Shown: positions 20,676 through 41,815 of the stretch, one piece after another
Numbering within the stretch: the stretch's first letter is position 1
Layout of the letters: each line of letters opens with the position of its first letter
Assembly: GCA_964654025.1 (NCBI GenBank)
Contig: CAZZIF010000002.1
Span: 883 to 64,882, forward strand
From: an uncultured bacterium
GTDB lineage: Bacteria > Eisenbacteria > RBG-16-71-46 > CAIMUX01 > WJJG01
Length of the DNA stretch: 64,000 nt
Direction of reading: 5' to 3'
Program-made: the position numbers and the translations under genes
Notes under the pieces: generated by a model
Seen by the model: the letters and a program-made list of their open reading frames with translations, nothing else
Told to the model about the DNA's origin: nothing
Database searches by the model: none

Positions 20676-23600
20676 ATGGACCGAGAAGCACTCGCGGCAC
20701 TGGCCGATCGGGCCGGGATCGAGCCGGAGTACTGGGACATCCGTGGTCAAAGGCACCAGATCACCGATGGAACGAAGCTCACCTTGTTGCGGGCCATGGG
20801 GCTTCCGGTCGCTGATGAGGGTGACCTGCGCCGGGTGCTGACGGAATGGGATGATGCGATCTGGCTTCGCGGGATCCAACCGGTGCTCGTCAAGACGGGC
20901 GGTGATGCCCCGATCGAGGTGGATCTGCACTGGCCGGTGGAAGCGCTGGAGCAGACCGTCGTCTGGACATTACAAGAGGAAGGCGGCATCCGCCATCAGG
21001 ATCGATTCGTACCGGCCGGGTTGGAAATGGTCGCGGAACGCACGATCCGTGGACGACCGTTCGTCCGATTGAGGCTACGCATCCACGCCAGCACGGCACT
21101 TGGGTATCACACCCTGTGGATTGAACCCGAGGAAGCGTCTGAAGCGTCCAATGCAACGTACGACGATCCTCCGGCAGGCGCATCAGAACGGCCTCCCAAG
21201 AGCGCTGCCGAGAGTGTCCAGAGCATGCGGCTCATCGTCGCCCCGACAGCTTGTTACATTCCCCCGGGCATGAGCGACGAGGATCGGGTGTGGGGACCGG
21301 CGGTGCAGCTCTATGCCCTGCGATCGGTGCGCAACTGGGGTGCCGGCGATTTCAGCGACCTGACCGTCCTTCTCGAACTCGCGGCCGAGCAAGGGGCTGG
21401 AATGGTCGGTCTCAATCCCCTACACGCCCTCTTCCCTCACGATCACACCCGGCGTAGTCCGTATAGTCCCTCCAGCCGGCGTTTCCTGAATACATTCTAC
21501 ATCGACGTCGAAGCGGTACCGGAGTTCAGGGAGTGCGAAGCCGCTCGCCGTCTGGTCGGCGAGCCTCGCTTCCAGGCACAGCTGCTCTCCCTTCGCGAGG
21601 CCGAGTTCGTGGACTTCGCGGCGGTGTCGAGCGCGAAGCGTTCCGTCTTGGAACGTCTCTACGAGGAGTTTCGCAACCGGCACGTGGCCAACAGCACCGC
21701 CCGTGCGGAAGCCTTCCGCGCCTATCAAGTCCGCGGGGGACACCGTCTCTGGCAGCACGCGGTCTATGAGGCCTTGTCCGAACACCTTCACGCGAAGGAT
21801 CCACACCTCTGGGGGTGGCCGGTATGGCCCGAGGCATACCGTGACCCGGACGGCGCCGCGGTACTGGCCTTCGCCCAGGAAAATCACGCCCGCGTGGAGT
21901 TCTTCCAGTACCTGCAGTGGGTCGCCCAGGAGCAGTTCGCCGGCGCGGGACGGCGATCCTTGGATTTGGGACTGAAGGTCGGGTTGTATGAGGATCTCGC
22001 GATCGGGGTCGACATCGGTGGGCTCGATACCTGGTTGGATCAGAGCCTGTATGCGCTCGATGCCCGCATCGGGGCCCCCGCGGATGACTTCAACCCGGAA
22101 GGGCAGGAGTGGGGTTTGCCGCCGATGATCCCGCATCGGCTGCGTGCGACCGGGTACCAGCCGTTCATCGAGGTGCTGCGCGCCAACATGCAGCACGGCG
22201 GCGTGCTCCGAATCGATCACGTCATGGGTTTGATGCGCCTGTTCTGGGTTCCGTCGGGCGAGAAGCCGACTCACGGCGCCTACGTGCGCTACGCGCTATC
22301 CGACCTGCTCGCGGTCCTGGCGCTGGAAAGCCAACGGAACCACTGCATGGTGGTGGGGGAGGACCTCGGCACCGTCGATGATCGCGTGCGAGATGCGATG
22401 GGGCCGGCGCAGATCCACGCCTACCGGGTCTTCTACTTTACGAAGGGCGAAGACGGGGCCTTCCGGCTTCCGGAGAATTATCCTTCTCAGGCGCTGGTCA
22501 CGGTGAGTACCCATGACTTGCCCACCCTTCCCGGCTACTGGGAGGGCCGCGACATCCATGTGCGCGGGGAGCTGGATCTCTATCCGGACCCGGCCACCGA
22601 AGAGGAACAGGTTCTCACGCGCGGGCAGGACCGCACCCGCATCATGGTGTCCTTGTCGAAAGCGGGATTGTTGCCCAAGGGCACCGGACTCGACGCCGCG
22701 CTTCTGCCGGACCTGCCCGACAGCTTGATCCAGGCCATCCATGCCTATCTGGCGCGAACACCGTCTCGCATGATGACCTTCCAGTTCGAGGATGTGATGG
22801 GTCAGCTCGACCAGGTGAACTTCCCCGGAACCGTCGACGAGCATCCGAACTGGTGCCGGAAGCTCCCGATCACCCTCGAGGCGATTGGTGAGGACCCACG
22901 CTGGACGGGGCTCACCGAGGTCCTCCGGCGGGAGAGGGGCATGGGACGCGTGGCCGCGGACCGGGAAGATGAGGTCCAGCGAACGGGACCGGATGCCCTG
23001 GTCCCCCGCGCGACCTACCGTTTGCAAATGAACCGGCGCTTCACCTTCGACGATGCCGCGCGCCTGGTTCCGTACTTGAAGCGGCTCGGCATTAGCCACT
23101 GCTATCTGTCGCCGGTGTTGAAAGCGCGCCCGGGCAGTCTGCACGGCTACGACATCATCGACCACAACGAACTCAATCCCGAGATCGGCGGACGGGGGGC
23201 CTTCGATCATCTGGTGCACGTGCTTCATCAGCATCAGATGGGCCTGATCCTGGACATGGTGCCGAACCACATGGGCATCGGCTGGGACAATCCATGGTGG
23301 TACAACGTGCTCGAGAACGGACCCGCCTCACCCTACGCCGGTTTCTTCGACATCGACTGGCAGCCGGTCAAGCCGGAACTGCATGGCAAGGTGCTGCTGC
23401 CCGTTCTGGAAGATCACTATGGGCTGGTCTTGGAGCGGGGCCTCCTGAAGGTGATTTTCGACGCCGGAACCGGTGAGTTCACCCTGGGCTACCATGACCA
23501 TCGATTTCCGCTGGATCCGCGAACCTATCCCACCCTCTTGACCCATGGGATCGAGCGATTGCAGCAGGAGCTGGGAGCCGAAGATCCGAACCTTCACGAG

Positions 23601-25988
23601 CTGCAGACGCTCATCGATGCTCTCACCAACCTGCCGGACCGACATGAGACCGAGAGCGAGAAGATTGCCGTCCGCCTGCGCGATCAAGAGGTCCTCAAGC
23701 GTCACCTCGTTCGAATCTGCGCGGTGAATGAAAGCATTCTCCGATTCGTGCATGCGGTGGTGGAGGTCTTCAACGGGCGGAAAGGGCACCCGGGCAGCTT
23801 CGACCGGTTGGACGCGTTGCTGGCCCACCAAGCCTATCGCCTGGCGTTCTGGCGCGTCGCTTCTGACGAGATCAACTACCGGCGCTTCTTCGATATCAAC
23901 GATCTGGCCGGGCTGTCGATGGACAATCCGGAGGTTTTCGACCGAACCCACCGGCTGGTGATGGAATGGATCAGCCAGGGGAAGGTCCAGGGACTCCGCA
24001 TCGATCACCCCGATGGACTGCGGGATCCGTTGGACTACTGTCGCCGGCTACAGGAGGCGGCCCGTGTGGCGCGCGGACCCCGCGGAGGACGGAGAACCAT
24101 AAACCCATCCACCGGGTGTGACAATCCTTCGTGCGAGCCCGAAGCGGTCTACATTGCCCTCGAGAAGATCCTGATCGGGGACGAGCAGTTGCCCCAGGAC
24201 TGGCCCGTGCATGGAACCACCGGGTACGAGTACGCGTCTGCGGCGACCGGAATGCTGATCGATCAGAGTGCCGAAGCAGCTCTGGAGCGCATCTACAATC
24301 GGTTCGTTGGCCGCAAGACCGAGTTCGCCGAGTTGCTCTACCGCTGCAAGAAGATGATCGTTCACGGGCCTCTGGCCAGTGAACTCAACGTCCTTGCCAC
24401 GGATCTGAACCGGATCGCAGAGTCCGATCGTCACACGCGCGATTTCACGCTCAGCCGCATCAAGGAGGCGTTGGCGGAAGTCGTCGCCTGCTTCCCCGTT
24501 TACCGAACCTATGTCACCGGACGGGGCGTGAGCCCAGAGGATCGCCGGTACGTCGACCAGGCCATCGCCGAGGCCCGGATGCGTTCTCAAGCGATCGATG
24601 TCAGTATCTACGACTTCATCGCCCGCATGCTGCTGCTCGACTTCACCGAGCGCACACCCGAAAGCGTGCGATCTTCGGCGACGCGCTTTGCGATGAGTTT
24701 TCAGCAGTACACGGGACCGGTCATGGCCAAGGGCATGGAGGACACCGCATTCTACGTCTTCTACCGGCTTCTCTCGCTCAATGATGTGGGGAACGATCCC
24801 ACACGGTTCGGGCGGTCGGTGGCCGAATTCCACGAGCGCAACCGGGATCGGGCTCAAGATCGGCCCCATGCCCTCTTGAGCAACTCGACACACGATCATA
24901 AGCGCAGTGCGGACGTGCGGGCGCGAATCAATGTCCTCTCGGAAGTCCCCGACCGCTGGCAAGCGTGCGTGTCTGGCTGGAATCGAATGAACCGCAGTCA
25001 CAAGCGCCGAGTGGCGGGCCTGTTCGCGCCGACGAAGAATGACGAGTACGCCTTCTATCAGACGCTGATCGGCGTCCATCCCGCGGGCGCCCTCACCGGA
25101 GATCAGATCGACACATTCCGTGAACGTATCGAGCGCACCATGATCAAGTCCGTGCGTGAGGCGAAGGTGCACAGCAGCTGGATCAATGTCAATCCGGCCT
25201 ATGAGGATGCAACGTTATCCTTCGTCCGCGCAGTTCTGGCCGATGATCGCGAGGACGGCTTCCTGGCTGACTTCAGAAGGTTCCAAAGCAAGGTTGCGTT
25301 TTTCGGTATGCTGAATGGTCTGGCCCTCACGTTGCTCCAGCTCACTGTCCCCGGCGTGCCGGACATCTATCAAGGAGACGAACTGTGGCGCTACTCCCTG
25401 GTCGATCCCGACAATCGGCGCCCGGTGGACTTCGCGTTGCGCCAGCGGATGCTGCGAGAACTCGACCAGCAGCAACGCGAGCCGTCCCTTTCGCAAGACG
25501 AATCAAGTGGCGATTCGGAAGCCTCGGAAGCCGATGCCGCATCCGTCCCGGCACTCGCGCGAACGCAGGATCTCTTCTCGTCTTTGTCGGACGGACGGGC
25601 CAAACTATACGTGCTCAGCCGGGTGTTGAGGCTACGCGCTCAATTGCCGGAGCTGTTCAGCTCGAGCGAGTATGAGGCGCTCGCGGTTCGGGGGAGCCTG
25701 GCCGATCACGCCTGCGCCTATCTTCGGCGTCATGGAGAGCGGGCGATGATCGTCATTGTGCCGCGTCTGTGCGCCAAGCTCCTGGACTTCACACCGGGAC
25801 GGATGCCGGTCGGCGAAAAGGTGTGGGGTGATACGTGGATCGAGCTGGCGAGGCCTGAGGCCGGGCGCGTCCTTCGCCACGTCCTGACCCGTGAGACGCT
25901 GGAACCGGGTCAGGGTGACCAGTCGGGGAGGATTCCGATGGGTGAGGCCCTCCGGTCGATTCCGGTCGGCCTCTTCTTGTGCGAATAG
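20676..25988 (+). CDS. treY: Bifunctional 4-alpha-glucanotransferase (GH77, MalQ-like N-terminal half) / malto-oligosyltrehalose synthase (TreY, C-terminal half), 1770 aa
   Basis: Continuous ORF with a GGAGAGGAG RBS. Residues 1-~760 carry the MalQ N-terminus ALADRAGIEPEYWDIRGQ and the GH77 core. Residues ~770-1770 begin ATYRLQMNRRFTFDDAARLVPYLKRLGISHCYLSPVLKARPGSLHGYDIIDH, the TreY start and GH13. Confidence 0.85.
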   Translation: MDREALAALADRAGIEPEYWDIRGQRHQITDGTKLTLLRAMGLPVADEGDLRRVLTEWDDAIWLRGIQPVLVKTGGDAPIEVDLHWPVEALEQTVVWTLQEEGGIRHQDRFVPAGLEMVAERTIRGRPFVRLRLRIHASTALGYHTLWIEPEEASEASNATYDDPPAGASERPPKSAAESVQSMRLIVAPTACYIPPGMSDEDRVWGPAVQLYALRSVRNWGAGDFSDLTVLLELAAEQGAGMVGLNPLHALFPHDHTRRSPYSPSSRRFLNTFYIDVEAVPEFRECEAARRLVGEPRFQAQLLSLREAEFVDFAAVSSAKRSVLERLYEEFRNRHVANSTARAEAFRAYQVRGGHRLWQHAVYEALSEHLHAKDPHLWGWPVWPEAYRDPDGAAVLAFAQENHARVEFFQYLQWVAQEQFAGAGRRSLDLGLKVGLYEDLAIGVDIGGLDTWLDQSLYALDARIGAPADDFNPEGQEWGLPPMIPHRLRATGYQPFIEVLRANMQHGGVLRIDHVMGLMRLFWVPSGEKPTHGAYVRYALSDLLAVLALESQRNHCMVVGEDLGTVDDRVRDAMGPAQIHAYRVFYFTKGEDGAFRLPENYPSQALVTVSTHDLPTLPGYWEGRDIHVRGELDLYPDPATEEEQVLTRGQDRTRIMVSLSKAGLLPKGTGLDAALLPDLPDSLIQAIHAYLARTPSRMMTFQFEDVMGQLDQVNFPGTVDEHPNWCRKLPITLEAIGEDPRWTGLTEVLRRERGMGRVAADREDEVQRTGPDALVPRATYRLQMNRRFTFDDAARLVPYLKRLGISHCYLSPVLKARPGSLHGYDIIDHNELNPEIGGRGAFDHLVHVLHQHQMGLILDMVPNHMGIGWDNPWWYNVLENGPASPYAGFFDIDWQPVKPELHGKVLLPVLEDHYGLVLERGLLKVIFDAGTGEFTLGYHDHRFPLDPRTYPTLLTHGIERLQQELGAEDPNLHELQTLIDALTNLPDRHETESEKIAVRLRDQEVLKRHLVRICAVNESILRFVHAVVEVFNGRKGHPGSFDRLDALLAHQAYRLAFWRVASDEINYRRFFDINDLAGLSMDNPEVFDRTHRLVMEWISQGKVQGLRIDHPDGLRDPLDYCRRLQEAARVARGPRGGRRTINPSTGCDNPSCEPEAVYIALEKILIGDEQLPQDWPVHGTTGYEYASAATGMLIDQSAEAALERIYNRFVGRKTEFAELLYRCKKMIVHGPLASELNVLATDLNRIAESDRHTRDFTLSRIKEALAEVVACFPVYRTYVTGRGVSPEDRRYVDQAIAEARMRSQAIDVSIYDFIARMLLLDFTERTPESVRSSATRFAMSFQQYTGPVMAKGMEDTAFYVFYRLLSLNDVGNDPTRFGRSVAEFHERNRDRAQDRPHALLSNSTHDHKRSADVRARINVLSEVPDRWQACVSGWNRMNRSHKRRVAGLFAPTKNDEYAFYQTLIGVHPAGALTGDQIDTFRERIERTMIKSVREAKVHSSWINVNPAYEDATLSFVRAVLADDREDGFLADFRRFQSKVAFFGMLNGLALTLLQLTVPGVPDIYQGDELWRYSLVDPDNRRPVDFALRQRMLRELDQQQREPSLSQDESSGDSEASEADAASVPALARTQDLFSSLSDGRAKLYVLSRVLRLRAQLPELFSSSEYEALAVRGSLADHACAYLRRHGERAMIVIVPRLCAKLLDFTPGRMPVGEKVWGDTWIELARPEAGRVLRHVLTRETLEPGQGDQSGRIPMGEALRSIPVGLFLCE

Positions 25989-26886: not shown

Positions 26887-27211
26887 GAATGCCTCCCGTT
26901 TCCTTCTGCACGTGCAAGAAGTCATGTGATCGACGCACATCACTCTAAGACCACTGCGTGTCACCGGATACCAGGGAGATACTGGCGTGGCGACCGTTCG
27001 TTTCCGTCCTCGTGCGTGGGGGCACTCCCCAGGAGATCCCCGGTGGGATGCGATGCGGTAAGAGTGGATTGCCCGGTGTCCTCGTGAACGGTGATGCGCT
27101 ATTGAATGGAGTATCCGGTAGCCAGATAAGTGCCGCCGACAGGGCGGGTACAATCGATTTGTGGCCGACGAACACAATGGGGTGACGACCTTGAAGCGAC
27201 GCGAGGGACCA

Positions 27212-28795
27212 ATGGTGGAACGACGGATCGCAAAGAAGCGCGGACGAGAGGTCCAGTTGCTGGGCCTGCTTGTCATCGGCAGCCTCGGGCTTCTTGCCGG
27301 ACCAGCCCGAATCGGTGACCTCGGACCTGCGGCGAGTCTGGGGTTCGTGGCCACTGCGCAGACCGCAAACCAGCCAGAGCGCGCCAGCGCAGATCCCAGC
27401 TTGGACCAGCCTCTTGACGAGGTGGCTCCGGATCTGCGCATCCGCAGAAACGTCGAGCGCGCGTTGTCGGCAACCTGGGCGGTTCCCGCTGACAGCATCG
27501 CGACGGCGGTTGCGGATGGAATCGTGACGCTTTCGGGCTCGGTGCCCCATCTGCTGGCCAAGGACCAGGCGACACGGGCGGCCGAGGCCGTGCGTGGGGT
27601 TCGCGCCATCGTGAACCGCGTGGAGGTGCGGCCCCTTGCCCGCAGCGACGCCTTTTTGAGGGAACGGATTTCGAGGGCGTTGGCGGCGGATCCGGTGGTG
27701 GAGGCCGAGGACATCACGGTGGACGTCCTTCACGGTGAGGTCACCCTTTCTGGACCAGTGGGCTCCATAGTGGAGCAGCGCGCGGCGGTCCAGGCGGCCA
27801 AACGAATCGTAGGCGTGCTGGGTGTTCGCAATCTGCTTGACCTGGTCCCCGAACTGGATCGGCCCGATGAACGCATCGAGGAGGAAGTCAAACGCCGCCT
27901 GCGCTACGACGCGCTCGTGGTTGCCGATCGGATCGCGGTCGACGTCGAGGGCGGACATGTTCGTCTGTCGGGTCGGGTGCCCTGTGCTGCAGAGCGTAGG
28001 CGCGCCGAGACGGATGCCTCGGTCCCCGGCGTGCGATCCGTCCATGTAGAAGATCTGGTCGTGGATCCAGACATGGATCGCGCGTTCATGCACCGTGCGG
28101 ATCTGGTTGCCTCAGACTCTCCGAGTCTGGCAGAGGCCCCCAGTGACGAGGAGATCGAGCAGGCGATTGTCGCGTCGCTGTTTCAGGATCCACGGATCGG
28201 TGTGGATTTGATCGAAGTCGAGGTCGACGAAGGCGTCGCCTTTCTGCAGGGACAGGTCGAGCGACCGCGCGAAGTGCGTCTGGCTGAAGAGAACGCACGT
28301 CATACAGTGGGGGTCCTGGCGGTCAGGAATCACTTGAGCGTACGGCCGCCTCAGCGTCCCTCCGACCGGCAGCTCCAGGGCGCCGCCGAGGAAGCGCTCC
28401 AGGCGAATGCCTATGTGAACGGCGACTCGATCGAGGTGGCCGTCCATGGAGGGCTCATCTATCTGTTCGGCACAGTGGCCGATCATGGAACGGTTCGCGA
28501 GGCCATTGAAGTTCTGGAAAGCGTGCCCGGGGCGGTCGCGGTACTCAATAACCTGCGGGTTCTTCGCAACGGATCCGAGATGTCCGACGAAGAGCTGCGC
28601 AAGCGGGTGCAGTGGTTGATCGAGGGGTCGGCGCTGATCAAGGCGGATGAGGTCGTGGTCCTGTCCAATACCGGAACGGTCAGTCTCCGGGGTGATGTTC
28701 AGACCTGGACGGGGCGCGCCGTCGCGGAGGATCTGGCCTACCGGGCGGGTGCGCTCAGCGTCATCAACCGTCTGCAGGTGAGCGGTACCCGGTAA
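27212..28795 (+). CDS. Multi-BON-domain protein (OsmY-like), secreted/periplasmic
   Basis: Six or more BON repeats (pattern I..AL......V.V.V..G.V.LSG.V). N-terminal hydrophobic segment. The start at 27212 is uncertain. Confidence 0.65.
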   Translation: MVERRIAKKRGREVQLLGLLVIGSLGLLAGPARIGDLGPAASLGFVATAQTANQPERASADPSLDQPLDEVAPDLRIRRNVERALSATWAVPADSIATAVADGIVTLSGSVPHLLAKDQATRAAEAVRGVRAIVNRVEVRPLARSDAFLRERISRALAADPVVEAEDITVDVLHGEVTLSGPVGSIVEQRAAVQAAKRIVGVLGVRNLLDLVPELDRPDERIEEEVKRRLRYDALVVADRIAVDVEGGHVRLSGRVPCAAERRRAETDASVPGVRSVHVEDLVVDPDMDRAFMHRADLVASDSPSLAEAPSDEEIEQAIVASLFQDPRIGVDLIEVEVDEGVAFLQGQVERPREVRLAEENARHTVGVLAVRNHLSVRPPQRPSDRQLQGAAEEALQANAYVNGDSIEVAVHGGLIYLFGTVADHGTVREAIEVLESVPGAVAVLNNLRVLRNGSEMSDEELRKRVQWLIEGSALIKADEVVVLSNTGTVSLRGDVQTWTGRAVAEDLAYRAGALSVINRLQVSGTR

Positions 28796-28955
28796 GGGAA
28801 CTACCCCTTGACCCGCACCAGGGAATCCCCGATGGCGTGGTGGCCGGTGTGTGGCGCATGGTTGCTCGAGGTCGATCTTGGCATAGGTGCGGCGAAGCTG
28901 CCACTTCCGATTGGGGTGGGGGCGCCGTGCCGCCATCGAATGAGGAGAGTAGTCG

Positions 28956-29177
28956 ATGGATATAACAATTGATCGTGAGGAATGTACGTCGTGCGAAGTG
29001 TGTTGGAATGCGTGTCCTGAGGTGTTTCAACAGAACGACGACGACTCGTGGAGCGAGATCGTCGACAAACACCGCATGGATGGTGATCCGAGTCATGGTG
29101 AAGTAAGCGAGGATCTGGCCGATTGCGTTCGGGAGGCGGCCGAAGGCTGTCCGGTAGAGATCATCCATGTGTCCTAG
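28956..29177 (+). CDS. Small 4Fe-4S/3Fe-4S ferredoxin
   Basis: CTSCEVCWNACP...C cluster-binding pattern. GAGGAG RBS. Confidence 0.7.
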   Translation: MDITIDREECTSCEVCWNACPEVFQQNDDDSWSEIVDKHRMDGDPSHGEVSEDLADCVREAAEGCPVEIIHVS

Positions 29178-29327
29178 GGCACGGGTTCCAATGCACGGGT
29201 TCCAATGCACGGGTTCCAATGCACGGGTTCCAAAGTACGGCGTCGAGGAGGGGTATCGCAGGGTGCATGTCGGCCGACATGGGCTCCGTTCCCGATTCGA
29301 CATCCGTACATCTAGAGGGAGAAGGGG

Positions 29328-29714
29328 ATGACAGAATACCACGAGCCGTTTGATGTTCTGCCCGAAGGTGTGCGGAACATCCACCGGGCCCTGCGGAGCT
29401 TGATCGAAGAGGTGGAGGCCATCGACTGGTATCACCAGCGGGTCGCCGTCACGCAGGATGCGGCCCTGCGGGCGGTCTTGGCTCACAATCGCGACGAAGA
29501 GATCGAACATGCCTGCATGGCGCTGGAATGGCTGCGCCGGAACATGGATGGATGGGATGGAGAGTTGCGTGAGTATCTTTTCACCGACAAGGACATCGTC
29601 GCGACCGAGAGTGCCGGTGACGGCGGTCATGATGGTGAGAGCGCCGAAGCGGCCGATGACGACCGAGCCTCGCAGGATCTAGGCATTGGTGGCCATAGGA
29701 AGGAGAAGGATTGA
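29328..29714 (+). CDS. Encapsulated ferritin-like protein (EncFtn/Flp cargo) with C-terminal targeting peptide
   Basis: HEPFDVLPEGVRNIHRALRSLIEEVEAIDWYHQR...HNRDEEIEHACMALEWLRR matches the EncFtn metal-binding helices. C-terminal DLGIGGHRKEKD resembles the SLGIGSL cargo-loading motif. Confidence 0.75.
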   Translation: MTEYHEPFDVLPEGVRNIHRALRSLIEEVEAIDWYHQRVAVTQDAALRAVLAHNRDEEIEHACMALEWLRRNMDGWDGELREYLFTDKDIVATESAGDGGHDGESAEAADDDRASQDLGIGGHRKEKD

Positions 29715-30511
29715 TGGATCTGCTGAAACGCGCGCAGGCGCCCGTGACCGAGGAAGCCTGGGAACAGATCGAGGAAGAGACGCGGCGGACGCTCAAGGCC
29801 AACCTGTCCGCCCGGTGGCTCATGGACGTGGAAGGACCGCATGGGCCGGAGTTCGCTGCGCTGAACCTGGGCCGGATGGCTGTGCCGGAAAACCAGTCCA
29901 AGGAGGCCGTCCGTTACGGACTTCGGCAGGTCCAGCCGCTGATCGAGCTGCGGGCATCATTTACCCTCGATCAGTGGGAACTCGACAACGCGTCCCGTGG
30001 GGCGGAGGACGTCGATCTCGACCCCGCGGCCGACGCCGCCCGTGAGATGGCTCACTTCGAAGAACGAGCCATCTATGAAGGCTTACCGGAAGCCGGGATT
30101 ACCAGCCTGCGACAGGCCTCGGTGCATTCGGCGATCAAGCTCGGGGCCGAAGGCCTGAAGTATGCCGAGCCGATCAGCAAAGGGCTGGTGACGCTGCGTC
30201 AGGCGGGCATTGATGGCCCGTATGGTCTGGTGCTCGGGCCGAAGCCCTACGAGCGACTTGCTGCGGTCGGCCGGTCTTGCCCGACGATGCAGCACATCGA
30301 GCACTTGATTGGCGGCCCGCTTCTGCTCAGCCCAGTTCTCAAGGGCGGATTCCTGATATCCATGCGGGGAGGGGATTTCCAGCTGGTTCTGGGGCTGGAC
30401 GCATCACTGGGGTGGGAGTCGCACGAGGGCGGTTCGGTGACGCTGTTCTTGACCGAATCGTTCACCTTCCGGACCCTCGAGCCCCGCGCGGTGGTTCCCT
30501 TCGTGGAGTAG
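29714..30511 (+). CDS. Family 1 encapsulin nanocompartment shell protein (HK97-fold)
   Basis: The ATG overlaps the EncFtn stop (TGATG). MDLLKRAQAPVTEEAWEQIEEE...VEGPHG, LIELRASFTLDQWELDN and ERGGDFQLVLG...LTESFTF align along the full length with the Thermotoga maritima encapsulin (MEFLKR..., LIELRATFTLDLWELDN, ERGGDFKLILG..ITETFTF). Confidence 0.85.
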   Translation: MDLLKRAQAPVTEEAWEQIEEETRRTLKANLSARWLMDVEGPHGPEFAALNLGRMAVPENQSKEAVRYGLRQVQPLIELRASFTLDQWELDNASRGAEDVDLDPAADAAREMAHFEERAIYEGLPEAGITSLRQASVHSAIKLGAEGLKYAEPISKGLVTLRQAGIDGPYGLVLGPKPYERLAAVGRSCPTMQHIEHLIGGPLLLSPVLKGGFLISMRGGDFQLVLGLDASLGWESHEGGSVTLFLTESFTFRTLEPRAVVPFVE

Positions 30512-30599
30512 ACCCGGTCCCATGCCGTGACGTGGTCCGCGCTAGTGTCTGCCAGTTCCCGCTGGTCGCCACCAGTCCCCCCAGTCCCCCCAGTCCCCA

Positions 30600-31562
30600 C
30601 TAGTTCCCACCTGTGGAGGTCATATCGGCATGGATGCGTTCGACGTCCGAGCGCCGGCACAGCTCGGTGCCGGGCGTCATCACCGCTGCTGCGCCCGCTG
30701 CGATGCCGAAGCGGACGGCGGAGGACAGATCGTTGCCGCGGGCCAGCCCCAGAACGATGCCGCCTACCATGCTGTCACCCGCGCCCACCTTGCTCTGGAT
30801 CCGGACGGAAGGCGCCCCCATGCGTTCGGCCGCCCGCTCCGTCACGAGTAGCGCGCCCCCGCGTCCCAAGGAGACGACCACCACCACGGCCCGGGCCTCG
30901 CCGATGAGTTCGCGGGCCGCAGCCTCGATGGCCTTCTCATCGCCGAGCTCACGGCCGGCCAGCGCCTCGAGTTCGGCCAAGTTCGGCTTGATCAGATACG
31001 CGCCCTCCGCCAAGGCTTGACGCAAGGGCTCGCCCTTGGTATCGACCACGAAACGCGATCCCGGCGGCAACCCTTGGCTCAAGCGAGCATAGTAGTCGTC
31101 CGGGACGCCGGGCGGGAGACTCCCGCTGGCCACGACATAGCAGGTTTCATTCTCATCGAGTGCCTTCTTGACCTCGCCCAACGTTCCATCGAGCATCCGG
31201 CTGGCTTCCTCGGCCGAAACATCCGCTCCCGGCATCACCAGGCGATACTGTGAGCCACTGGATTCATCGAGCAGATGGATGTTCTCCCTGGTCGTGGCAT
31301 CGAGGGCCACGCGCCGGTGAGAGAGTCCCGCTCCCTCGAGCAGTTGGGCCAGCCGCGCGGCCGTATCCCCTCCGCCGGCCCAGACCGCACGCGCGGTTCC
31401 ACCAAGCTCGTGTACCACCCGGGCCACGTTGATCCCGCCTCCGCCCGGTTGCCGACGAACCGAATGACAGCGGAGCTTCTTCTCGGGAGTGACGTGGGCC
31501 GCCCGGCAACTGCGGTCCAAACTCGCATTGATCGTGCTCGTGACGATGATGGATCTGGGCAT
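30600..31562 (-). CDS. PfkB-family carbohydrate kinase (1-phosphofructokinase/tagatose-6-P kinase-like)
   Basis: AAGGAG RBS. GGKGINVARV-type N-terminal motif (GGGGINVARVV). C-terminal GAGDSMVGG ATP-binding motif. Confidence 0.8.
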   Translation of the reverse strand: MPRSIIVTSTINASLDRSCRAAHVTPEKKLRCHSVRRQPGGGGINVARVVHELGGTARAVWAGGGDTAARLAQLLEGAGLSHRRVALDATTRENIHLLDESSGSQYRLVMPGADVSAEEASRMLDGTLGEVKKALDENETCYVVASGSLPPGVPDDYYARLSQGLPPGSRFVVDTKGEPLRQALAEGAYLIKPNLAELEALAGRELGDEKAIEAAARELIGEARAVVVVVSLGRGGALLVTERAAERMGAPSVRIQSKVGAGDSMVGGIVLGLARGNDLSSAVRFGIAAGAAAVMTPGTELCRRSDVERIHADMTSTGGN

Positions 31563-31851: not shown

Positions 31852-33429
31852 ATGTATGACGACATTGGCGAACACCTCAAGCCCGCCGTCCTTTTGATCT
31901 CTGACAGGAGCCGAGCGAGCCGACCGGTCCACTCCGTGCTGGAGCATCGAGGAATCAATATCCACGAGTGCCGGTCCATGCAGGAACTCGTCGAACGGAT
32001 GGCCAGCGGTAGCGGTCCGGTGGTTCTATCGGTGCCCGAACTCAATGCCGAGGACGCCGAGCTTCTTCTCAAGGAGCTGCGATCACAGCCCTACTGGTCG
32101 GACGTTCCCGTGATCTTGCTAGAGTCGGGGGCGACTTCGGTCGTGCCGGAAGAACTACGGAGGCAGCGGGGCACCACATTCCTGAAGCAGCCGATCGAGG
32201 ACGAGGTTCTCACCGGGGTCGTGCAGACCGCGATCGAAACCCGTCTCCGCCAGCTTCAGGTCCGAGATTTGCTGCTTCATCTCGAAGACCTCCATCAGAA
32301 GGCCGCGGTCAGGGCTCGTCATCTCCAGCATCTCTCGATGAAGCTCGCCACGGCTGAACATGACGAGCGCACGCGCATTGCCGGGGTCATCCACGACGAG
32401 TTCCAGCAGCTCCTGGTCGCAGCCCGCATGCGATTGGGGAGCCTTCAGGGGATTCAGGATGGTGGCGGCATGGCCGAGATGGCCGAAGCTTGCCGCGAGG
32501 TCGACGAGCTCTTGCGGGAAGCGATTCAGTCGGCACGTGGCTTGACACGCCAGCTGTCGCCGCCCGTACTGCGTCATGGAGGTTTGAGGGCGGCACTGAG
32601 CTGGTTGATCCAGACGTCGCGGGACCGCCACGATCTTCGCATCGACGCCGAGATCGCCCCGGCGGCGGATGAACTCGACCGGTCGATTCAACTGTTCATG
32701 TTCGAAGCCGCGCGTGAGTTGATCTTCAACGTCGTCAAGCACGCCAATACGCTCCGGGCGAGTCTCGACCTCAAGGTGACCTGTGAGAATGCCCTCCTAT
32801 CGGTCAAGGATGATGGGAGCGGATTCGATCCGAGCATCGTCGGGAACGACGCGGAGGCGCCGCAGGGATTGGGTTTGTTCGGCATTTCCGAGCGCGCGGC
32901 GCTGCTGGGAGGAAACCTGCACGTCCAATCGCATCCTGGAGGTGGGTGCGAAGTCGACCTTGCGATCCCGTTGGCCGTGCAGCCCAAGGTGAGCAAGGGG
33001 ACCTTTGCGACAGCCATCGATCCGGAGTTCGACCCAGGTCAGGAAGATGATTCCAGCGCGGTCGATGGTCGCAAGCGGGTCCTCGTCGTCGATGATCACC
33101 GGATCGTCAGACAGGGCATTGCTTCGATGCTTGCCCACCACGAGGACATCTTGGTCATTGGTGAGGCGTCGGACGGGCAGGAAGCCCTCGAGAAGGCGCG
33201 CGCCCTCAAACCTGATGTCATCCTCATGGACGTATCCATGCCGGGAATGAACGGGATCGACGCCACCCGCGCCATCCGCAACGAGATGGACGAGATTGAC
33301 ATCATCGGCCTGTCCATGTTCGAGATGGAGGAAATCGGACAGCAGATGCTGGATGCGGGCGCGCGATGTTATCTACCGAAGAGCGGTCCCGCGCAGGCGT
33401 TGCTCGAGGAAATCCGCTTTGCACGCTAG
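31852..33429 (+). CDS. Hybrid sensor histidine kinase: N-terminal (pseudo)receiver, HisKA_3 dimerisation/phosphoacceptor, HATPase_c, C-terminal REC domain; no membrane or obvious sensor domain
   Basis: HDERTRIAGVIHDEFQQLL (HisKA_3 H-box, NarX/DosS type). GLGLFGISERAALLGGNL (G2 box). C-terminal RVLVVDDHRIVRQGIASML...DVILMDVSMPGMNGI (REC with D-MP motif). AT-rich promoter-like region upstream (31760-31850). Confidence 0.75.
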   Translation: MYDDIGEHLKPAVLLISDRSRASRPVHSVLEHRGINIHECRSMQELVERMASGSGPVVLSVPELNAEDAELLLKELRSQPYWSDVPVILLESGATSVVPEELRRQRGTTFLKQPIEDEVLTGVVQTAIETRLRQLQVRDLLLHLEDLHQKAAVRARHLQHLSMKLATAEHDERTRIAGVIHDEFQQLLVAARMRLGSLQGIQDGGGMAEMAEACREVDELLREAIQSARGLTRQLSPPVLRHGGLRAALSWLIQTSRDRHDLRIDAEIAPAADELDRSIQLFMFEAARELIFNVVKHANTLRASLDLKVTCENALLSVKDDGSGFDPSIVGNDAEAPQGLGLFGISERAALLGGNLHVQSHPGGGCEVDLAIPLAVQPKVSKGTFATAIDPEFDPGQEDDSSAVDGRKRVLVVDDHRIVRQGIASMLAHHEDILVIGEASDGQEALEKARALKPDVILMDVSMPGMNGIDATRAIRNEMDEIDIIGLSMFEMEEIGQQMLDAGARCYLPKSGPAQALLEEIRFAR

Positions 33430-34877: not shown

Positions 34878-36068
34878 ATGACCATCATGGATCCAATTCC
34901 GGACCGAGAGGGTGTTCTCGATCTATTGCGCGACTCGGGCTGGCCGCGCCTGTCGATCTACATGCCGACCGGCCGACCCGGGTCGGAAGCGCAGAAGAAC
35001 CAGATTCGGTTCAAGAACCGCATCCAGGAGGCCGCTGGCGGCCTCATTGCCGGCGGCATGAGAACTCGCCAAGTCCAAGACTTCCTGGCGCCGATCCGCG
35101 CCATGATCGACGATCAGCGATTCTGGCGGTATCAGGCCGACGGTCTGTGCATGTTTCAAAGCCCGAACTCACTGCGCTACTTCCGTCTGCCGCGAAGAGT
35201 GCCCGAGTTGACCGTGGTTTCGAAGAGCTACCACATCAAGCCTCTCCTCCCGCTCTGGAGCGATCAGATGCGTTGCTACCTCCTGTCGGTGGACCTTCGC
35301 GAGGTCGATCTGTTCGAGGTCGATGCTCTTGGATTGCGGCAGGTCCAATCGAACGACGATCTGCCCGAGGGCATCGAGGAGTTCCGACCCGATGAAGGCG
35401 ACAATGGGGGCCTGCAATGGCACACCGGAGGGGAGGGTGAGCGTGCCACGGCGGGCACGCCCGGCGAAACCGGCCCCATCTACCATGGTCATGGTCGCGG
35501 CAAGGATGCCTCACTCGAGAAGGAACGCATCTTGGCCTACCTGCGAGAGGTCGAAGACGTGGTCACCCGGCGGGTGGCCGGCTCCGAGGTCCCGCTCATT
35601 CTAGCGGGCGTGGAGTATCTTCTCCCTCTATATCGAGAGGCGAATCACTATCCGCACGTGCTGCCGGCGGATCTGCCGGTCAATACCCGCGAGATGAGCG
35701 AGGACGATCTTCATCAGGAAGTCTTGAGGCTCATGCAACCACTTCAAGAGCAGCGGCGTGATGAGCTCCTCGAGCGCTACCGGACGATGCGACCACGGCA
35801 GCGAACCTCTCGTGGCATCAAGGATGTCCTGGTGGCCGCCACAGCCGGCAGGGTGGATACGCTCTGGGCTCAGGGAGAGGCCTACTGCTGGGGACGATAC
35901 GATCCCGCGACCACCCAGGTAGACATCCACGCACGTCAGCATCCATACGATGAGGACCTGGTCAACACGGCGGCGGTTGAGGCGCTCAAGACCCAGGCGC
36001 AGGTGCTATTGGCCGAACCGGAGCAGATGCCGGAAGAGGGCAAGGTGGCAGCTCTGCTGCGCTATTAG
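34878..36068 (+). CDS. Bacterial archaeo-eukaryotic release-factor-like (baeRF/Rv2629-like) family protein, putative
   Basis: N-terminal LDLLRDSGWPRLSIYMPT, then LCMFQSPNSLRYFRLP and CYLLSVDLREVDLFEV. These resemble the conserved N-terminal blocks of eRF1-like bacterial families (M. tuberculosis Rv2629 type). The call rests on pattern recognition only. Confidence 0.45.
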   Translation: MTIMDPIPDREGVLDLLRDSGWPRLSIYMPTGRPGSEAQKNQIRFKNRIQEAAGGLIAGGMRTRQVQDFLAPIRAMIDDQRFWRYQADGLCMFQSPNSLRYFRLPRRVPELTVVSKSYHIKPLLPLWSDQMRCYLLSVDLREVDLFEVDALGLRQVQSNDDLPEGIEEFRPDEGDNGGLQWHTGGEGERATAGTPGETGPIYHGHGRGKDASLEKERILAYLREVEDVVTRRVAGSEVPLILAGVEYLLPLYREANHYPHVLPADLPVNTREMSEDDLHQEVLRLMQPLQEQRRDELLERYRTMRPRQRTSRGIKDVLVAATAGRVDTLWAQGEAYCWGRYDPATTQVDIHARQHPYDEDLVNTAAVEALKTQAQVLLAEPEQMPEEGKVAALLRY

Positions 36069-37054: not shown

Positions 37055-37110
37055 GGCCCCATGACGGTGGCCCGATGATGACGGCCCCATCACGATGGCT
37101 CCATGAAAGC
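37055..37110. repeat. ~15-bp degenerate tandem repeat (GATGGCCCCATSACG) x3 immediately upstream of ppsA
   Basis: Direct reading. Confidence 0.6.
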
Positions 37111-37123
37111 ACACGGAGCAGAT

Positions 37124-39559
37124 ATGCAGAAGAGCGAGGCAACCATGACCTCTACGAAGCAAGGCGGGAAGTCTCGTCGCCGGGAAGAAAGCTACGTTCG
37201 TTGGCTCCAGGACCTGAGCAATGACGACGTCGAACAAGTGGGCGGCAAGAACGCATCGCTTGGCGAGATGCTGCGGTCCTTGAAGAAAGAAGGCGTGCGG
37301 GTGCCGAACGGCTTCGCCACCACGGCGCACGCCTATCGAGAGTTCCTGACACACAACGACCTGGAGGAGGAGATTCGGTCACGGCTCGAGGGACTGGCTC
37401 CGGACGAGTCGGATCTCGTGAAGGTGGCGCGTGGGGTCCGCCGACTCTTCTCGCGTGCCGAGTTTCCGCAAGCAGTGCGTTCGGCCATCGAGCAAGCCTA
37501 CCAGGAGCTGTCAGAAACCTACGATACCAGCGATGTCGATGTCGCCGTTCGCAGCAGCGCCACCGCGGAGGATTTGCCTGAGGCGAGCTTCGCGGGACAG
37601 CAAGAGACCTACTTGAACGTCTCCGGAGCGGAGGATCTTCTCGATGCCTGCCGGGACTGCTACGCCTCCCTGTTCACCGCCCGGGCGATCGCCTACCGCG
37701 CCGAAAAAGGCTTCGATCACCTCGAGGTAGCCCTATCGGTGGGCGTGCAGAAGATGGTCCGGGCCGACCGCGCGGGGGCCGGCGTGATGTTCTCGATCGA
37801 CACCGAGACCGGCTTTCCGGATGTGGTCGTGATCAACGCGGCCTGGGGCCTCGGCGAAAACGTGGTTCAAGGAGCGATCACGCCGGACGAGTACCGCGTC
37901 TTCAAGCCCCCGCTGGAAGAAGACGGATTTGTGCCGATCATCGAGAAGAGCCTTGGAGAGAAGCAGAAGAAGATCATCTATGCGAGCGGCAACGGCCAGA
38001 CGATCAAGAATGTCGACACGCCCAAGAAGGAGCGACGCTCGTTTGTCCTCACGAATGAAGACATCCTCACCCTGGCGCGCTGGGCAGTCGCCGTCGAGAA
38101 GCACTATCAGAAGCCGATGGACATGGAGTGGGCCAAGGACGGGGACTCGGGCGATCTCTACATGGTGCAAGCCCGTCCCGAGACGGTTCAGTCGCAGCGG
38201 ACCGGACAGGCACTCAGCACCTACCGGCTCAAGGAACGAGGCGAGGTGCTCGTCACCGGACTGGCGATTGGGGAAGCGATTGCCGCCGGAAAGGTGTCGA
38301 ACATCGGCAACCCGCACGAGGCGGAGGGTTTCGAGGATGGCAGCATTCTGGTTACCGAGATGACCGATCCGGACTGGGTGCCCGTCATGAAGCGCGCCGC
38401 GGGGATCATTACCGACCATGGGGGGCGGACGAGCCATGCCGCCATTGTCAGCCGCGAGCTCGGTCTGCCAGCGCTGGTCGGATGCGAGAACGCGACCGAG
38501 CGGCTGGCTGACGATGACGAGGTCACGCTGTCGTGCGCAGAGGGGGAACGAGGCAAGGTGTTTCGCGGGAAGCTCGACTTCGAGGTCGAGGAACTCGACC
38601 TGTCCGACCTCCCGGAGGTGGGCCCGCGGATCATGATGAACATCGCCAGTCCCGCCGCGGCCTTGCGCTGGTGGCGCCTGCCGGCCAAGGGCGTGGGCCT
38701 GGCTCGCATGGAGTTCATCATCAACAACGTGATCAAGGCGCACCCGATGGCATTGCTGCACTACGACGAGCTCGAGGACAAACAAGCACGCCGGGACATT
38801 GCGGAGCTGACGAGCGCCTATGACGATCGTGGGGAGTACTTCATCGACAACCTCGCGCGCGGCATCGCCCGGCTGGCGGCTTCACAGTATCCCGAGCCCG
38901 TGATTGTGAGAATGAGCGATTTCAAGTCGAATGAGTACGCCGATCTGATCGGAGGGAAGCAGTTCGAACCCGACGAGGAGAATCCCATGTTGGGCCTGAG
39001 GGGTGCCGCACGGTACTACAGCGAGCAGTACCGCGAGGGATTCGCTCTGGAATGCCGGGCCATTCGCCGGGTACGTGAGGAGATCGGTCTGCGAAACGTA
39101 GTCATCATGATCCCTTTCTGCCGCACGCCGGAGGAAGCCGATCGCGTCCTCGAGGTCCTGGCCGAGAACGGACTCGAGCGGGGCAAGGACGGCCTCGAGA
39201 TTTACGTCATGATCGAGATCCCGTCGAACGTCGTGCTGGCCGAGGAGTTTGCCGAACGTTTCGACGGCTTCTCGATCGGCAGCAACGATCTCACGCAGCT
39301 CATCCTGGGCGTCGACCGAGACTCGGCTGCTCTCAGGGAGCTCTTCGACGAACGCCATCCGGCGGTCAAACGGTCCATCGCCGATCTCATCGAGCGTGCC
39401 CACCGAAAGGGCACTAAGGTCGGCATCTGCGGGCAAGCGCCCAGTGACCATCCGGGATTCGCCAGGTTCCTGGTGGAGTCGGGCATCGATTCGATCTCGT
39501 TGAATCCCGACAGCGTCGTGTCGGTGATCCGGGAAGTGGCCGAACTCGAAGGCAGGTAG
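37124..39559 (+). CDS. ppsA: Phosphoenolpyruvate synthase (pyruvate, water dikinase)
   Basis: VGGKNASLGEM ATP-grasp motif, phosphohistidine domain, PEP-utilising C-terminal domain. Start uncertain among the ATGs at 37103, 37124 and 37145. Confidence 0.85.
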   Translation: MQKSEATMTSTKQGGKSRRREESYVRWLQDLSNDDVEQVGGKNASLGEMLRSLKKEGVRVPNGFATTAHAYREFLTHNDLEEEIRSRLEGLAPDESDLVKVARGVRRLFSRAEFPQAVRSAIEQAYQELSETYDTSDVDVAVRSSATAEDLPEASFAGQQETYLNVSGAEDLLDACRDCYASLFTARAIAYRAEKGFDHLEVALSVGVQKMVRADRAGAGVMFSIDTETGFPDVVVINAAWGLGENVVQGAITPDEYRVFKPPLEEDGFVPIIEKSLGEKQKKIIYASGNGQTIKNVDTPKKERRSFVLTNEDILTLARWAVAVEKHYQKPMDMEWAKDGDSGDLYMVQARPETVQSQRTGQALSTYRLKERGEVLVTGLAIGEAIAAGKVSNIGNPHEAEGFEDGSILVTEMTDPDWVPVMKRAAGIITDHGGRTSHAAIVSRELGLPALVGCENATERLADDDEVTLSCAEGERGKVFRGKLDFEVEELDLSDLPEVGPRIMMNIASPAAALRWWRLPAKGVGLARMEFIINNVIKAHPMALLHYDELEDKQARRDIAELTSAYDDRGEYFIDNLARGIARLAASQYPEPVIVRMSDFKSNEYADLIGGKQFEPDEENPMLGLRGAARYYSEQYREGFALECRAIRRVREEIGLRNVVIMIPFCRTPEEADRVLEVLAENGLERGKDGLEIYVMIEIPSNVVLAEEFAERFDGFSIGSNDLTQLILGVDRDSAALRELFDERHPAVKRSIADLIERAHRKGTKVGICGQAPSDHPGFARFLVESGIDSISLNPDSVVSVIREVAELEGR

Positions 39560-39636
39560 CCCAGGTGAGTCGCGATCTCATCGATCCGATCGCTCGAAGA
39601 GACACTCTTAGAGAAACTCAAGGAAAGGGGGCCATC

Positions 39637-41271: not shown

Positions 41272-41781
41272 TCAGCCGAGAACTCGTAGCGCAGCGTCGA
41301 TGAACTCTGGAAGGTCATGCGGATTCCGGCTCGAAATCATGTTGCGATCGCGGACCACCGGCTGGTCCTTGACGATCGCACCTGCATTCTCCATGTCCTT
41401 CCGGATGGATGTATATCCAGTCACCGTTCGGCCGTTCAGCACATCAGCGGTAATCAAGAGCTGCGGAGCGTGGCAAATCAGGAAGACAGGCTTGTCGGCC
41501 TCCACGAACTCCCGCACGAAGGAGACGACCGGTTCATGAACCCGGAGCCGATCCGGTGAGTAGCCTCCGGGAATGAACAGGGCATCGTATTCGGTTGGAT
41601 CTGCGTCGGCGATGTTCAGATCGATCAGAACCGATTCTTGATTTCGCTTCCCGATGACTTTATCACCGGTCTTGAGTCCGATGTGGGTCAATGTGTGACC
41701 CGCCTCTCGGAAGCTGTTGGCGGGGCGGGTGTATTCAGAGTCTTCGAAGAGATGGTCGACAAGTACGGCGATAGTGGCCAT
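41272..41781 (-). CDS. DJ-1/PfpI family protein (class I glutamine amidotransferase-like; deglycase/protease)
   Basis: AGGAGG RBS 6 nt before the ATG at 41781. AIVKD...FLICHAPQLL nucleophile-elbow Cys and DALFIPGG motif. Confidence 0.8.
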   Translation of the reverse strand: MATIAVLVDHLFEDSEYTRPANSFREAGHTLTHIGLKTGDKVIGKRNQESVLIDLNIADADPTEYDALFIPGGYSPDRLRVHEPVVSFVREFVEADKPVFLICHAPQLLITADVLNGRTVTGYTSIRKDMENAGAIVKDQPVVRDRNMISSRNPHDLPEFIDAALRVLG

Positions 41782-41815
41782 GCGTGTCCTCCTGGTTCTG
41801 GTTCCACGGCGGCTA

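Follow-up and report, generated by a model that had tools for sequence, protein, structure and literature searches.

Does a small ferredoxin gene, found directly upstream of an EncFtn-encapsulin operon, belong to the nanocompartment that the operon encodes, or is it simply a neighbor? The question matters because the release of iron from encapsulin stores is an unsolved problem for which reviews have speculated about a cytoplasmic ferredoxin as electron donor (PMC11202242); an EncFtn operon into which a ferredoxin was truly integrated would offer a handy case for testing that idea. The comparative evidence presented here weakens this hope. With a probability that we put at roughly 70%, the window (the whole 64,000-nt stretch of DNA analyzed) carries a standard Family 1 EncFtn encapsulin beside a ferredoxin that is a general electron carrier and not a part of the nanocompartment. 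The system is a known one with a lineage-specific neighbor, a ferredoxin that is probably cotranscribed and of general purpose; in other respects the locus adds one more ordinary member to an EncFtn family of thousands.

The cargo gene (29328-29714, plus strand) encodes a 128-aa encapsulated ferritin-like ferroxidase, identified by Pfam PF22277 (E 1.6e-40) and NCBIfam TIGR04535 (145.1 bits against a cut-off of 125), with matches to PDB entries 33bf, 7oe2, and 5da5 (E 1e-29 to 1e-32) and 4371 homologues found. Among 33 homologues there is no variation at residues E27, E28, E30, W34, Y35, E57, E58, E60, and H61. They include the ferroxidase-center set E28/E58/H61 together with Y35 and W34, at an offset of +4 to the 5da5 chain numbering; in R. 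rubrum EncFtn we take the ferroxidase-center residues to be E32, E62, and H65, with Y39 and W38 nearby. The C-terminal GIGG targeting peptide that had been proposed for this protein is upheld: DLGIGGHRKEKD (29676-29711, plus strand; residues D117-LGIGGHRKEKD-128) aligns with the LGIGxLK tail of the family, with the tails of 32 homologues, among which L118 is nearly invariant, and with the localization sequence SLGIGSLRQE of H. ochraceum EncFtn (7oe2), and it has His after GIGx, where Leu is usual. A cargo gene that adjoins the shell gene and carries a C-terminal targeting peptide is what defines a Family 1 system, and both features are present.

The shell gene (29714-30511, plus strand, 265 aa) is matched from end to end by PF04454 (Linocin_M18; E 8.7e-82, model positions 1-253 of 253) and by NF041155 ("family 1 encapsulin shell"), the latter scoring 273.7 bits over positions 1-261 of 261 where its cut-off is 100, so that the Pfam and NCBIfam models bear out the classic two-gene Family 1 operon, EncFtn plus shell, described in the initial annotation. 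The reading frame is open to 30511 from either a TTG at 29711 or an ATG at 29714; since homologues begin MDLLKR or MEFLKR, we place the start at the ATG, which preserves the TGATG overlap described earlier (EncFtn TGA 29712-29714, shell ATG 29714-29716). Entries 7odw, 8u50, 3dkt, and Cfp29 match the protein over its full length (E 1e-52 to 2e-61), and EncA and 6nj8 match it much more weakly (E 1e-7 to 1e-11). The assignment of these entries to T=1, T=3, or T=4 is one that we presume, and on the strength of the resemblance the shell is probably a T=1 60-mer. The Trp in its FTLDQWELDN segment aligns with that of LDLWELDN in the T. maritima shell, the residue reported to bind flavin.

The ferredoxin gene (28956-29177, plus strand), with a GAGGAG Shine-Dalgarno sequence 8 nt before its start, encodes a 73-aa protein with the N-terminus MDITIDREEC. 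Its naming as a 4Fe-4S ferredoxin is confirmed by Pfam Fer4_13 (E 3.3e-15; 57 bits against a cut-off of 24.5) and Fer4_15 (E 4.4e-15; 56.6 bits against 22.4), and its PDB matches, with cysteines aligned, are P. furiosus Fd 2z8q (E 7e-8) and T. maritima Fd 1rof/1vjw. The predicted ligands of its single [4Fe-4S] cluster, C10, C13, C16, and C65, align with C11, (D/C)14, C17, and C56 of the P. furiosus protein, and C20 and C57 occupy the positions of the disulfide there; the pattern C-x2-C-x2-C-x3-CP...CP is kept in all 25 homologues. Only Fer4-type families are matched, and Pfam gives no match to Fer2_BFD at E <= 0.01. As had been noticed at the outset, neither end of the protein bears an LGIG/GSL-type targeting motif; nor does its 73-residue sequence, or that of any of the 25 homologues, contain a TVGSL- or LGIG-like motif. 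Having no targeting peptide, the ferredoxin is not expected to be a cargo.

It might nevertheless serve the compartment from outside. By analogy, it could be a dedicated, nonencapsulated redox partner that reduces and releases stored Fe3+, much as Bfd acts with bacterioferritin, with electrons entering by way of the pores or being handed to the shell itself, for instance to a flavin that stacks against the conserved Trp. We consider this unlikely, and are just as doubtful that a [4Fe-4S] ferredoxin was recruited as the first gene of an EncFtn-encapsulin operon, mobilizing stored iron from outside the shell; if true, it would be a 4Fe-4S counterpart of Bfd and IMEF-Fdx and a natural handle on how iron leaves encapsulins. 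The IMEF operons offer a precedent (PMC8346489), and a cytoplasmic ferredoxin as the missing donor for iron release is just what reviews have proposed (PMC11202242). The shell also keeps the Trp aligned to the flavin-binding Trp of T. maritima, but so do L103 and L076, counted as ferredoxin-less systems. Alignment of the 25 ferredoxin homologues revealed no residues specific to the encapsulin-linked members, which, with the lack of any targeting-peptide-like motif, speaks against a dedicated partner. For a role of the ferredoxin in mineralization or release, as first suggested, adjacency is the sole support.

How far that adjacency extends was judged from a sample of 80 EncFtn loci drawn from different GTDB species. 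None has a small ferredoxin upstream, in keeping with the earlier remark that the gene is not a standard component, and one (L076) has a small ferredoxin downstream, about 1 kb from the shell gene, with a fumarylacetoacetate hydrolase-like gene in between. Upstream neighbors of 77 of the loci represent 94 Pfam families, each in three loci or fewer. EncFtn and shell behave as a two-gene module, complete in itself, that has settled in many kinds of neighborhood, and the ferredoxin is one lineage-specific neighbor among many. Just three related contigs (L102, L011, and L005) repeat the order ferredoxin-EncFtn-shell, and all of them share the whole neighborhood with the window (SDR-BON-Fd-EncFtn-Enc-PfkB). 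L005 keeps the adjacency at 68% shell, 60% PfkB, and 50% BON identity, with its flanks partly changed: there is an extra BON gene upstream, and Metal_resist and P-type ATPase genes replace a histidine kinase downstream. The ferredoxin is absent at the next shell relatives, L108 (68% identity), L107 (57%), and L022 (49%), and ferredoxin-less L107 has the same island gene set (BON, GAPDH, iPGM, SDR, and P-type ATPase). In a scan of metagenome contigs the shell protein matched a single locus, 46% identical and without a ferredoxin, which gave no help in delimiting the clade. Named relatives of cargo and shell are confined to MAGs labeled Ca. Eisenbacteria, Latescibacteria, and Thermoanaerobaculia. 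Conservation of the arrangement in relatives thus holds only in part: it is kept in L102, L011, and L005, where everything around it is shared, and absent from L108, L107, and L022. That four contigs keep order and strand, two of them with spacers of 24 to 54 nt, favors a redox partner; that the upstream ferredoxin is missing from 80 of 80 EncFtn operons, and from the nearest nonsyntenic shell relatives too, argues against one. The adjacency is found in a single syntenic lineage and does not recur across independent lineages of EncFtn operons.

The company kept by related ferredoxins points the same way, for the closest homologues have other partners and no encapsulins. One (P0002, 85% identity) adjoins an APS kinase gene and nests within the encapsulin-linked ferredoxin clade in a neighbor-joining tree; P0006 (68%) and P0017 (55%) precede a Rieske/FAD reductase, P0009 (63%) comes after the alpha and beta genes of POR (pyruvate:ferredoxin oxidoreductase), and P0010 (63%) comes after superoxide reductase (SOR). 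A second lineage offers the redox-partner reading some encouragement, the same ferredoxin family (54-57% identity) lying in an SOR-Flp-encapsulin cluster 1.6 kb downstream of an Flp-type encapsulin in L008-L010 and L018-L019. There, however, two genes (Ldh and an 80-aa gene) separate ferredoxin and shell, and in L018 the ferredoxin overlaps an FTR-like/rubredoxin gene, a likelier partner than the encapsulin. Even so, encapsulins and this ferredoxin family meet more frequently than would be expected of a ferredoxin at random, which, like the survival of the adjacency in L005 at such divergence, counts against the reading of a general carrier.

A further explanation, which we hold to be no more probable than the redox partner, makes the ferredoxin an independent, separately transcribed housekeeping gene kept in place by neutral synteny in one lineage. 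Since the arrangement is always found with the wider neighborhood, its conservation may reflect shared ancestry alone; an 85%-identical ferredoxin lies away from any encapsulin in L001, as independence would allow. The spacer also bears on the matter. The initial annotation had given 63 nt to the next ribosome-binding site, but the ferredoxin stop ends at 29177 and the EncFtn ATG is at 29328, a gap of 150 nt; the EncFtn Shine-Dalgarno sequence GGGAGAAGGGG begins about 139 nt past the stop, and EncFtn cannot begin any earlier, its frame being closed by a TAG at 29313-29315. The tight linkage once claimed is therefore not a property of the window, although two relatives do have it: the corresponding spacers measure 135 nt in L102, 54 nt in L011, and 24 nt in L005. 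Part of the spacer is a 14-nt tandem repeat, GCACGGGTTCCAAT, in four copies (29179-29234, assigned to neither strand; TRF, 3.9 copies, 100% matches) that went unmentioned at first reading. No further copy occurs in the window, and 0 of 100 shuffles reached four matches; L102 has about three degenerate copies, and L011 and L005 have none. The repeat is a recent expansion of variable copy number, and the spacer containing it leaves room for an EncFtn promoter.

Against separate transcription, the spacers of L005 (24 nt) and L011 (54 nt) could hardly accommodate a promoter and leader, no terminator-like site or significant hairpin follows the ferredoxin gene, and a noncoding block is conserved upstream of the ferredoxin and not of EncFtn. 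This block (28796-28872, plus strand), which lies between the stop of the BON gene and the ferredoxin, is conserved in all four syntenic contigs, whereas the ferredoxin-EncFtn spacer is not. Because of the short spacers in L005 and L011, the missing terminator-like site, and this pattern of conservation, the ferredoxin is probably cotranscribed, heading a single transcript that runs on through EncFtn and shell; the 150-nt spacer could hold a promoter of its own, so that for the window itself we can only infer cotranscription. Its conservation makes the block a candidate for the promoter or operator that controls the ferredoxin-EncFtn-shell unit. It is missing upstream of the unlinked ferredoxins of L001 and L104 and upstream of EncFtn in L107, L108, and L022, whose operons have no ferredoxin; since it travels neither with the ferredoxin nor with ferredoxin-less EncFtn operons, it does not indicate which gene it serves.

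Searches for regulatory signals were largely negative. Covariation within the block was not convincing across its four sequences, scans for sigma-70 promoters and intrinsic terminators found no sites in 28400-30900, and Rfam at gathering thresholds gave no match anywhere in the window. Predicted RNA folds were no more stable than shuffled sequences in the ferredoxin-EncFtn spacer (z = -1.35), upstream of the ferredoxin (z = -1.27), or downstream of the shell gene (z = -0.72). We set aside a sigma-54-like TGGCGC-N5-TGC motif in the upstream block, as its GG-to-GC spacing is one base under consensus and its GC element is also not conserved in L005 when the block is aligned, and a 16-nt palindrome (29266-29281), which is imperfect in L102 and at chance level (about one expected per 64 kb). 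A long minus-strand ORF (28764-29630) that overlaps ferredoxin and EncFtn is read as a high-GC artifact, because the plus-strand genes match their families strongly.

We therefore return to a standard EncFtn encapsulin with a probable general electron carrier for a neighbor. In such a system, as predicted from the proteins' sequences, EncFtn subunits would assemble as ring-shaped ferroxidase oligomers that dock to the shell interior through the C-terminal DLGIGG peptide, within a shell that self-assembles, probably from 60 subunits (T=1). Fe2+ would come in through the shell pores and be oxidized at a di-iron site between subunits (E28/E58/H61 with Y35), and the resulting ferric mineral would be retained inside, providing iron storage and protection against iron- and oxygen-driven damage. 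The surroundings of the operon form a stress-type island, with two 6xBON proteins, DJ-1/PfpI, M50-CBS, and baeRF. The ferredoxin, a soluble single-cluster protein of the Pyrococcus/Thermotoga type whose gene in this lineage is flanked by a BON-domain gene and EncFtn, would be a low-potential electron carrier for general use that came to lie in this stress-response island, and it probably has no dedicated interaction with the shell.

The nearest known systems are Rhodospirillum rubrum Rru_A0973/A0974 and the Haliangium ochraceum EncFtn with its T=1 shell (7odw/7oe2), which have the same cargo-then-shell two-gene operon, the same Pfam and NCBIfam families, the same ferroxidase residues, an LGIG-type C-terminal targeting peptide, and, as in the window, a shell of this length whose best structural matches are of the T=1 type. 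The differences are a targeting peptide that reads LGIGG-H-RK against the LGIGxLK of the EncFtn family, the His being Arg or Tyr in the nearest relatives, and the same-strand ferredoxin directly upstream, which neither system nor any of the 80 sampled loci has. The IMEF encapsulin operons of Firmicutes resemble the window in joining an iron-mineralizing Family 1 encapsulin to a small ferredoxin gene in the cluster; theirs is a 2Fe-2S Bfd-like ferredoxin (Fdx) with an N-terminal, targeting-peptide-like TVGSL motif (PMC8346489), and its proposed role is reductive iron release (PMC8346489; PMC11202242). In the window, by contrast, the ferredoxin is of the [4Fe-4S] Fer4_13/15 type, has no TVGSL-like motif at its N-terminus, and is not conserved across the system type; the cargo is EncFtn instead of IMEF, and the shell is probably of the T=1 and not the T=4 type.

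A further comparison is with the oxidative-stress clusters of anaerobes (L008-L010 and L018-L019), which combine superoxide reductase, an encapsulin with Flp/rubrerythrin-type cargo, and ferredoxins. Like the window, they place this ferredoxin family within a few kilobases of a Family 1 encapsulin whose cargo is ferritin-like; they differ in their Flp cargo with a TIGSLKE tail, in the downstream position of the ferredoxin, and in the presence of SOR, OsmC, and DJ-1, no SOR being found near the operon in the window. The protein itself is best compared with the ferredoxins of P. furiosus and T. maritima (2z8q/1sj1, 1vjw). Similarity to these amounts to only about 30-35 bits, and some 10 extra residues (36-49), common to all 25 close homologues, set it apart from P. 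furiosus Fd, but it shares with them the C-x2-C-x2-C...CP ligands, the second cysteine pair, and a small, acidic character.

At its core this locus encodes an ordinary Family 1 EncFtn encapsulin, and the ferredoxin gene that precedes it is a genuine neighbour, limited to one uncultured lineage. The three plus-strand ORFs lie exactly where the initial annotation had placed them: ferredoxin at 28956-29177 (73 aa), EncFtn cargo at 29328-29714 (128 aa), and shell from 29711 (TTG) or 29714 (ATG) to 30511, all preceded, on inspection, by strong Shine-Dalgarno sequences (GAGGAG, GGGAGAAGGGG, GGAAGGAGAAGG). Since homologous shells open with MDLLKR or MEFLKR, the start is the ATG, whose A is shared with the EncFtn stop (TGA, 29712-29714) in the TGATG overlap already described. 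Pfam matches for the ferredoxin (Fer4_13 and Fer4_15, E ~4e-15), the cargo (EncFtn-like PF22277, E 1.6e-40) and the shell (Linocin_M18 PF04454, E 8.7e-82) are far beyond chance. The two-gene Family 1 EncFtn reading holds, cargo and shell both exceeding curated NCBIfam cut-offs: 145.1 bits to TIGR04535, "encapsulin-associated ferritin-like protein" (cut-off 125), and 273.7 bits to NF041155, "family 1 encapsulin nanocompartment shell protein" (cut-off 100).

The cargo aligns full-length to the solved encapsulated ferritins 33bf, 7oe2 and 5da5 (E 1e-29 to 1e-32). Residues E27, E28, E30, W34, Y35, E57, E58, E60 and H61 are invariant across 33 aligned EncFtn homologues; adding 4 gives the 5da5 numbering (structure alignment), and with that offset they correspond to the ferroxidase-centre and entry-site residues of R. 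rubrum (E31, E32, E34, W38, Y39, E62, H65). Beyond an acidic, poorly conserved linker, the C-terminal tail D117-LGIGGHRKEKD-128 (29676-29711) aligns to the family LGIGxLK tail and to the H. ochraceum localisation sequence, in agreement with the GIGG targeting peptide proposed initially. The residue after GIGx is Leu in most family members, His in the window (LGIGG-H-RKEK), and Arg and Tyr in the syntenic contigs L102 and L011, substitutions that may change how EncFtn docks in the shell pocket.

End-to-end shell matches include H. ochraceum 7odw (2e-61), K. pneumoniae 8u50, T. maritima 3dkt and M. tuberculosis Cfp29, all T=1 shells, whereas M. xanthus EncA and 6nj8 match far more weakly, at just 1e-7 to 1e-11; we infer that the window shell is a T=1 60-mer. 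The Trp of FTLDQWELDN is retained, aligning with T. maritima LDLWELDN, and we take it to be the flavin-stacking Trp named W90 in a review (PMC11202242). The shell and PfkB kinase genes converge, and the intergenic stretch that separates them contains a 9-nt tandem repeat, CCAGTCCCC x3 (30572-30598), inside a looser 10-nt array (30554-30610).

The suggestion that the ferredoxin is a non-standard component is well founded. When one genome per GTDB species was scanned with an EncFtn profile, 80 loci spread over many phyla were obtained, and searches with an HMM of the ferredoxin family and with cysteine motifs found a small ferredoxin upstream of EncFtn in none of them; at one (L076), a ferredoxin follows the shell at a distance of ~1 kb, separated from it by a fumarylacetoacetate hydrolase-like gene. 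At 77 loci the neighbouring genes upstream belong to 94 Pfam families, each present in at most three loci, a heterogeneity that marks EncFtn plus shell as a self-contained module in variable surroundings. An adjacent shell was not seen at ~16 of the 80 sampled loci. Two loci in gammaproteobacterial MAGs (L079, 3565-4962; L095, 3612-4976) have an EncFtn-like gene with no shell gene detectable within the locus, directly preceded by a gene for a ~460-aa protein with an iron-sulfur CCG-type cysteine motif.

Conservation of the ferredoxin-EncFtn-shell order among relatives, which the initial annotation proposed to check, stands for one lineage and fails beyond it. Three contigs, L102, L011 and L005, have the entire SDR-BON-Fd-EncFtn-Enc-PfkB neighbourhood in common with the window (ferredoxins 95%, 81% and 73% identical; shells 98%, 91% and 68%). 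The closest cargo and shell relatives outside this lineage are without the ferredoxin: L108, labelled Latescibacteria (shell 68% identical), L107, labelled Ca. Eisenbacteria (57%), and L022, Thermoanaerobaculia (49%). The island on L107, a MAG contig, has a gene set resembling that of the window (GH65, GAPDH, BON, P-type ATPase, iPGM, SDR).

The gap from the ferredoxin to the next RBS had been put at 63 nt and requires correction: from the end of the ferredoxin stop (29177) to the EncFtn ATG (29328) the gap is 150 nt (~139 nt to the Shine-Dalgarno), and a start further upstream is barred by an in-frame TAG at 29313-29315. One base past the stop begins a perfect 14-nt tandem repeat, GCACGGGTTCCAAT x4 (29179-29234), with no further copies in the 64-kb window; ~3 degenerate copies are present in L102, the closest relative, and none in L011 and L005, which are more distant. 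On these sequence comparisons the array is a recent expansion of variable copy number and, with relatives' spacers shorter (24 nt in L005, 54 in L011, 135 in L102), accounts for at least part of the window's long spacer. The spacer also contains a perfect 16-nt palindrome, CATGTCGGCCGACATG (29266-29281), imperfect in L102; chance alone predicts about one per 64 kb.

Unlike this spacer, a ~75-nt non-coding block directly upstream of the ferredoxin, past the BON gene (28796-28872; CCCTTGA ... GATGGCGTG ... GGCGCATG), is conserved in each of the four syntenic contigs. It was not found upstream of the unlinked ferredoxins or ferredoxin-less EncFtn operons examined, has no Rfam match and shows no clear covariation; it may serve as a promoter or operator. 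After the ferredoxin, a terminator scan revealed no terminator-like site, and RNA folding no hairpin of unusual stability. Given these features and the short spacers in relatives, we infer a regulatory region upstream of the ferredoxin and co-transcription of all three genes in this lineage; the ferredoxin is probably co-expressed with EncFtn and shell. A purely neutral adjacency with separate transcription is unlikely.

We read the ferredoxin (confidence roughly 0.7) as an all-purpose low-potential electron carrier that shares its location with stress genes, because the same family serves various redox partners elsewhere and the island is stress-like. A word-indexed protein search gave 25 close homologues; genomic context was viewed for nine, and a tenth ferredoxin context, that of L102, was reached via its EncFtn (P0027). 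Outside the syntenic contigs, P0002 (85%) stands alone, with an APS kinase gene alongside on the opposite strand, and falls within the linked-ferredoxin clade of a neighbour-joining tree; P0006 (68%) and P0017 (55%) precede a Rieske/FAD-type reductase; P0009 (63%) follows pyruvate:ferredoxin oxidoreductase alpha/beta; P0010 (63%) follows superoxide reductase (SOR); and P0018 (54%) and P0020 (57%) lie in SOR-Flp-encapsulin-Ldh-Fd clusters with an 80-aa (P0018) or 81-aa (P0020) protein before the ferredoxin and a cargo ending in TIGSLKE. At L104 (257-1738) and L007 (5001-6854), family ferredoxins (68%, 55%) directly precede a Rieske-domain/FAD pyridine-nucleotide oxidoreductase fusion, likely a dedicated ferredoxin reductase, which may be the family's usual partner. 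In a different lineage, L008 (621-5225; also L009, L010, L018, L019) carries an oxidative-stress supercluster with one encapsulin and two ferredoxins: OsmC, a 68-aa three-Cys ferredoxin, DJ-1, superoxide reductase, Flp cargo (TIGSLKE), encapsulin, Ldh, an 80-aa protein and a 74-aa ferredoxin. In L018 the ferredoxin of the window's family overlaps an FTR-like/rubredoxin gene.

The operon is part of an island (18522-44029) that looks to be of stress or dormancy type, with glycogen and trehalose enzymes, two six-repeat BON-domain proteins (27161-28795, 39565-41169), DJ-1/PfpI (41272-42099, minus strand), an M50 protease-CBS protein (42659-44029, minus strand), a baeRF-family protein (34878-36068), a HisKA_3 kinase-receiver hybrid (31852-33429), a PEP-utilising enzyme (37103-39559) and a 1770-aa MalQ-alpha-amylase fusion (20676-25988).

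The ferredoxin itself aligns to those of P. furiosus (2z8q, 1sj1) and T. maritima (1rof/1vjw), with C10, C13, C16 and C65 at cluster-ligand positions and C20 and C57 matching the second P. furiosus cysteine pair, which forms a disulfide in that protein. As first noted, it has no obvious targeting peptide: neither end carries an LGIG-, GSL- or TVGSL-like motif, and in this it is unlike cargo.

The encapsulin system is already known; its lineage-specific ferredoxin neighbour is the sole unusual aspect of the locus and could give a cheap experimental test of proposed ferredoxin-driven iron release. That the ferredoxin is a reductant driving such release, like the Bfd of bacterioferritin, we consider unlikely. 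There is precedent in the iron-mineralising IMEF operons, which carry a ferredoxin, Fdx (PMC8346489), and agreement with the speculation that a cytoplasmic ferredoxin acts on shell-bound flavin (PMC11202242), but the adjacency does not recur among EncFtn systems. The IMEF Fdx, moreover, is of the 2Fe-2S type with an N-terminal TVGSL motif (PMC8346489), and the window ferredoxin differs from it in both hallmarks.
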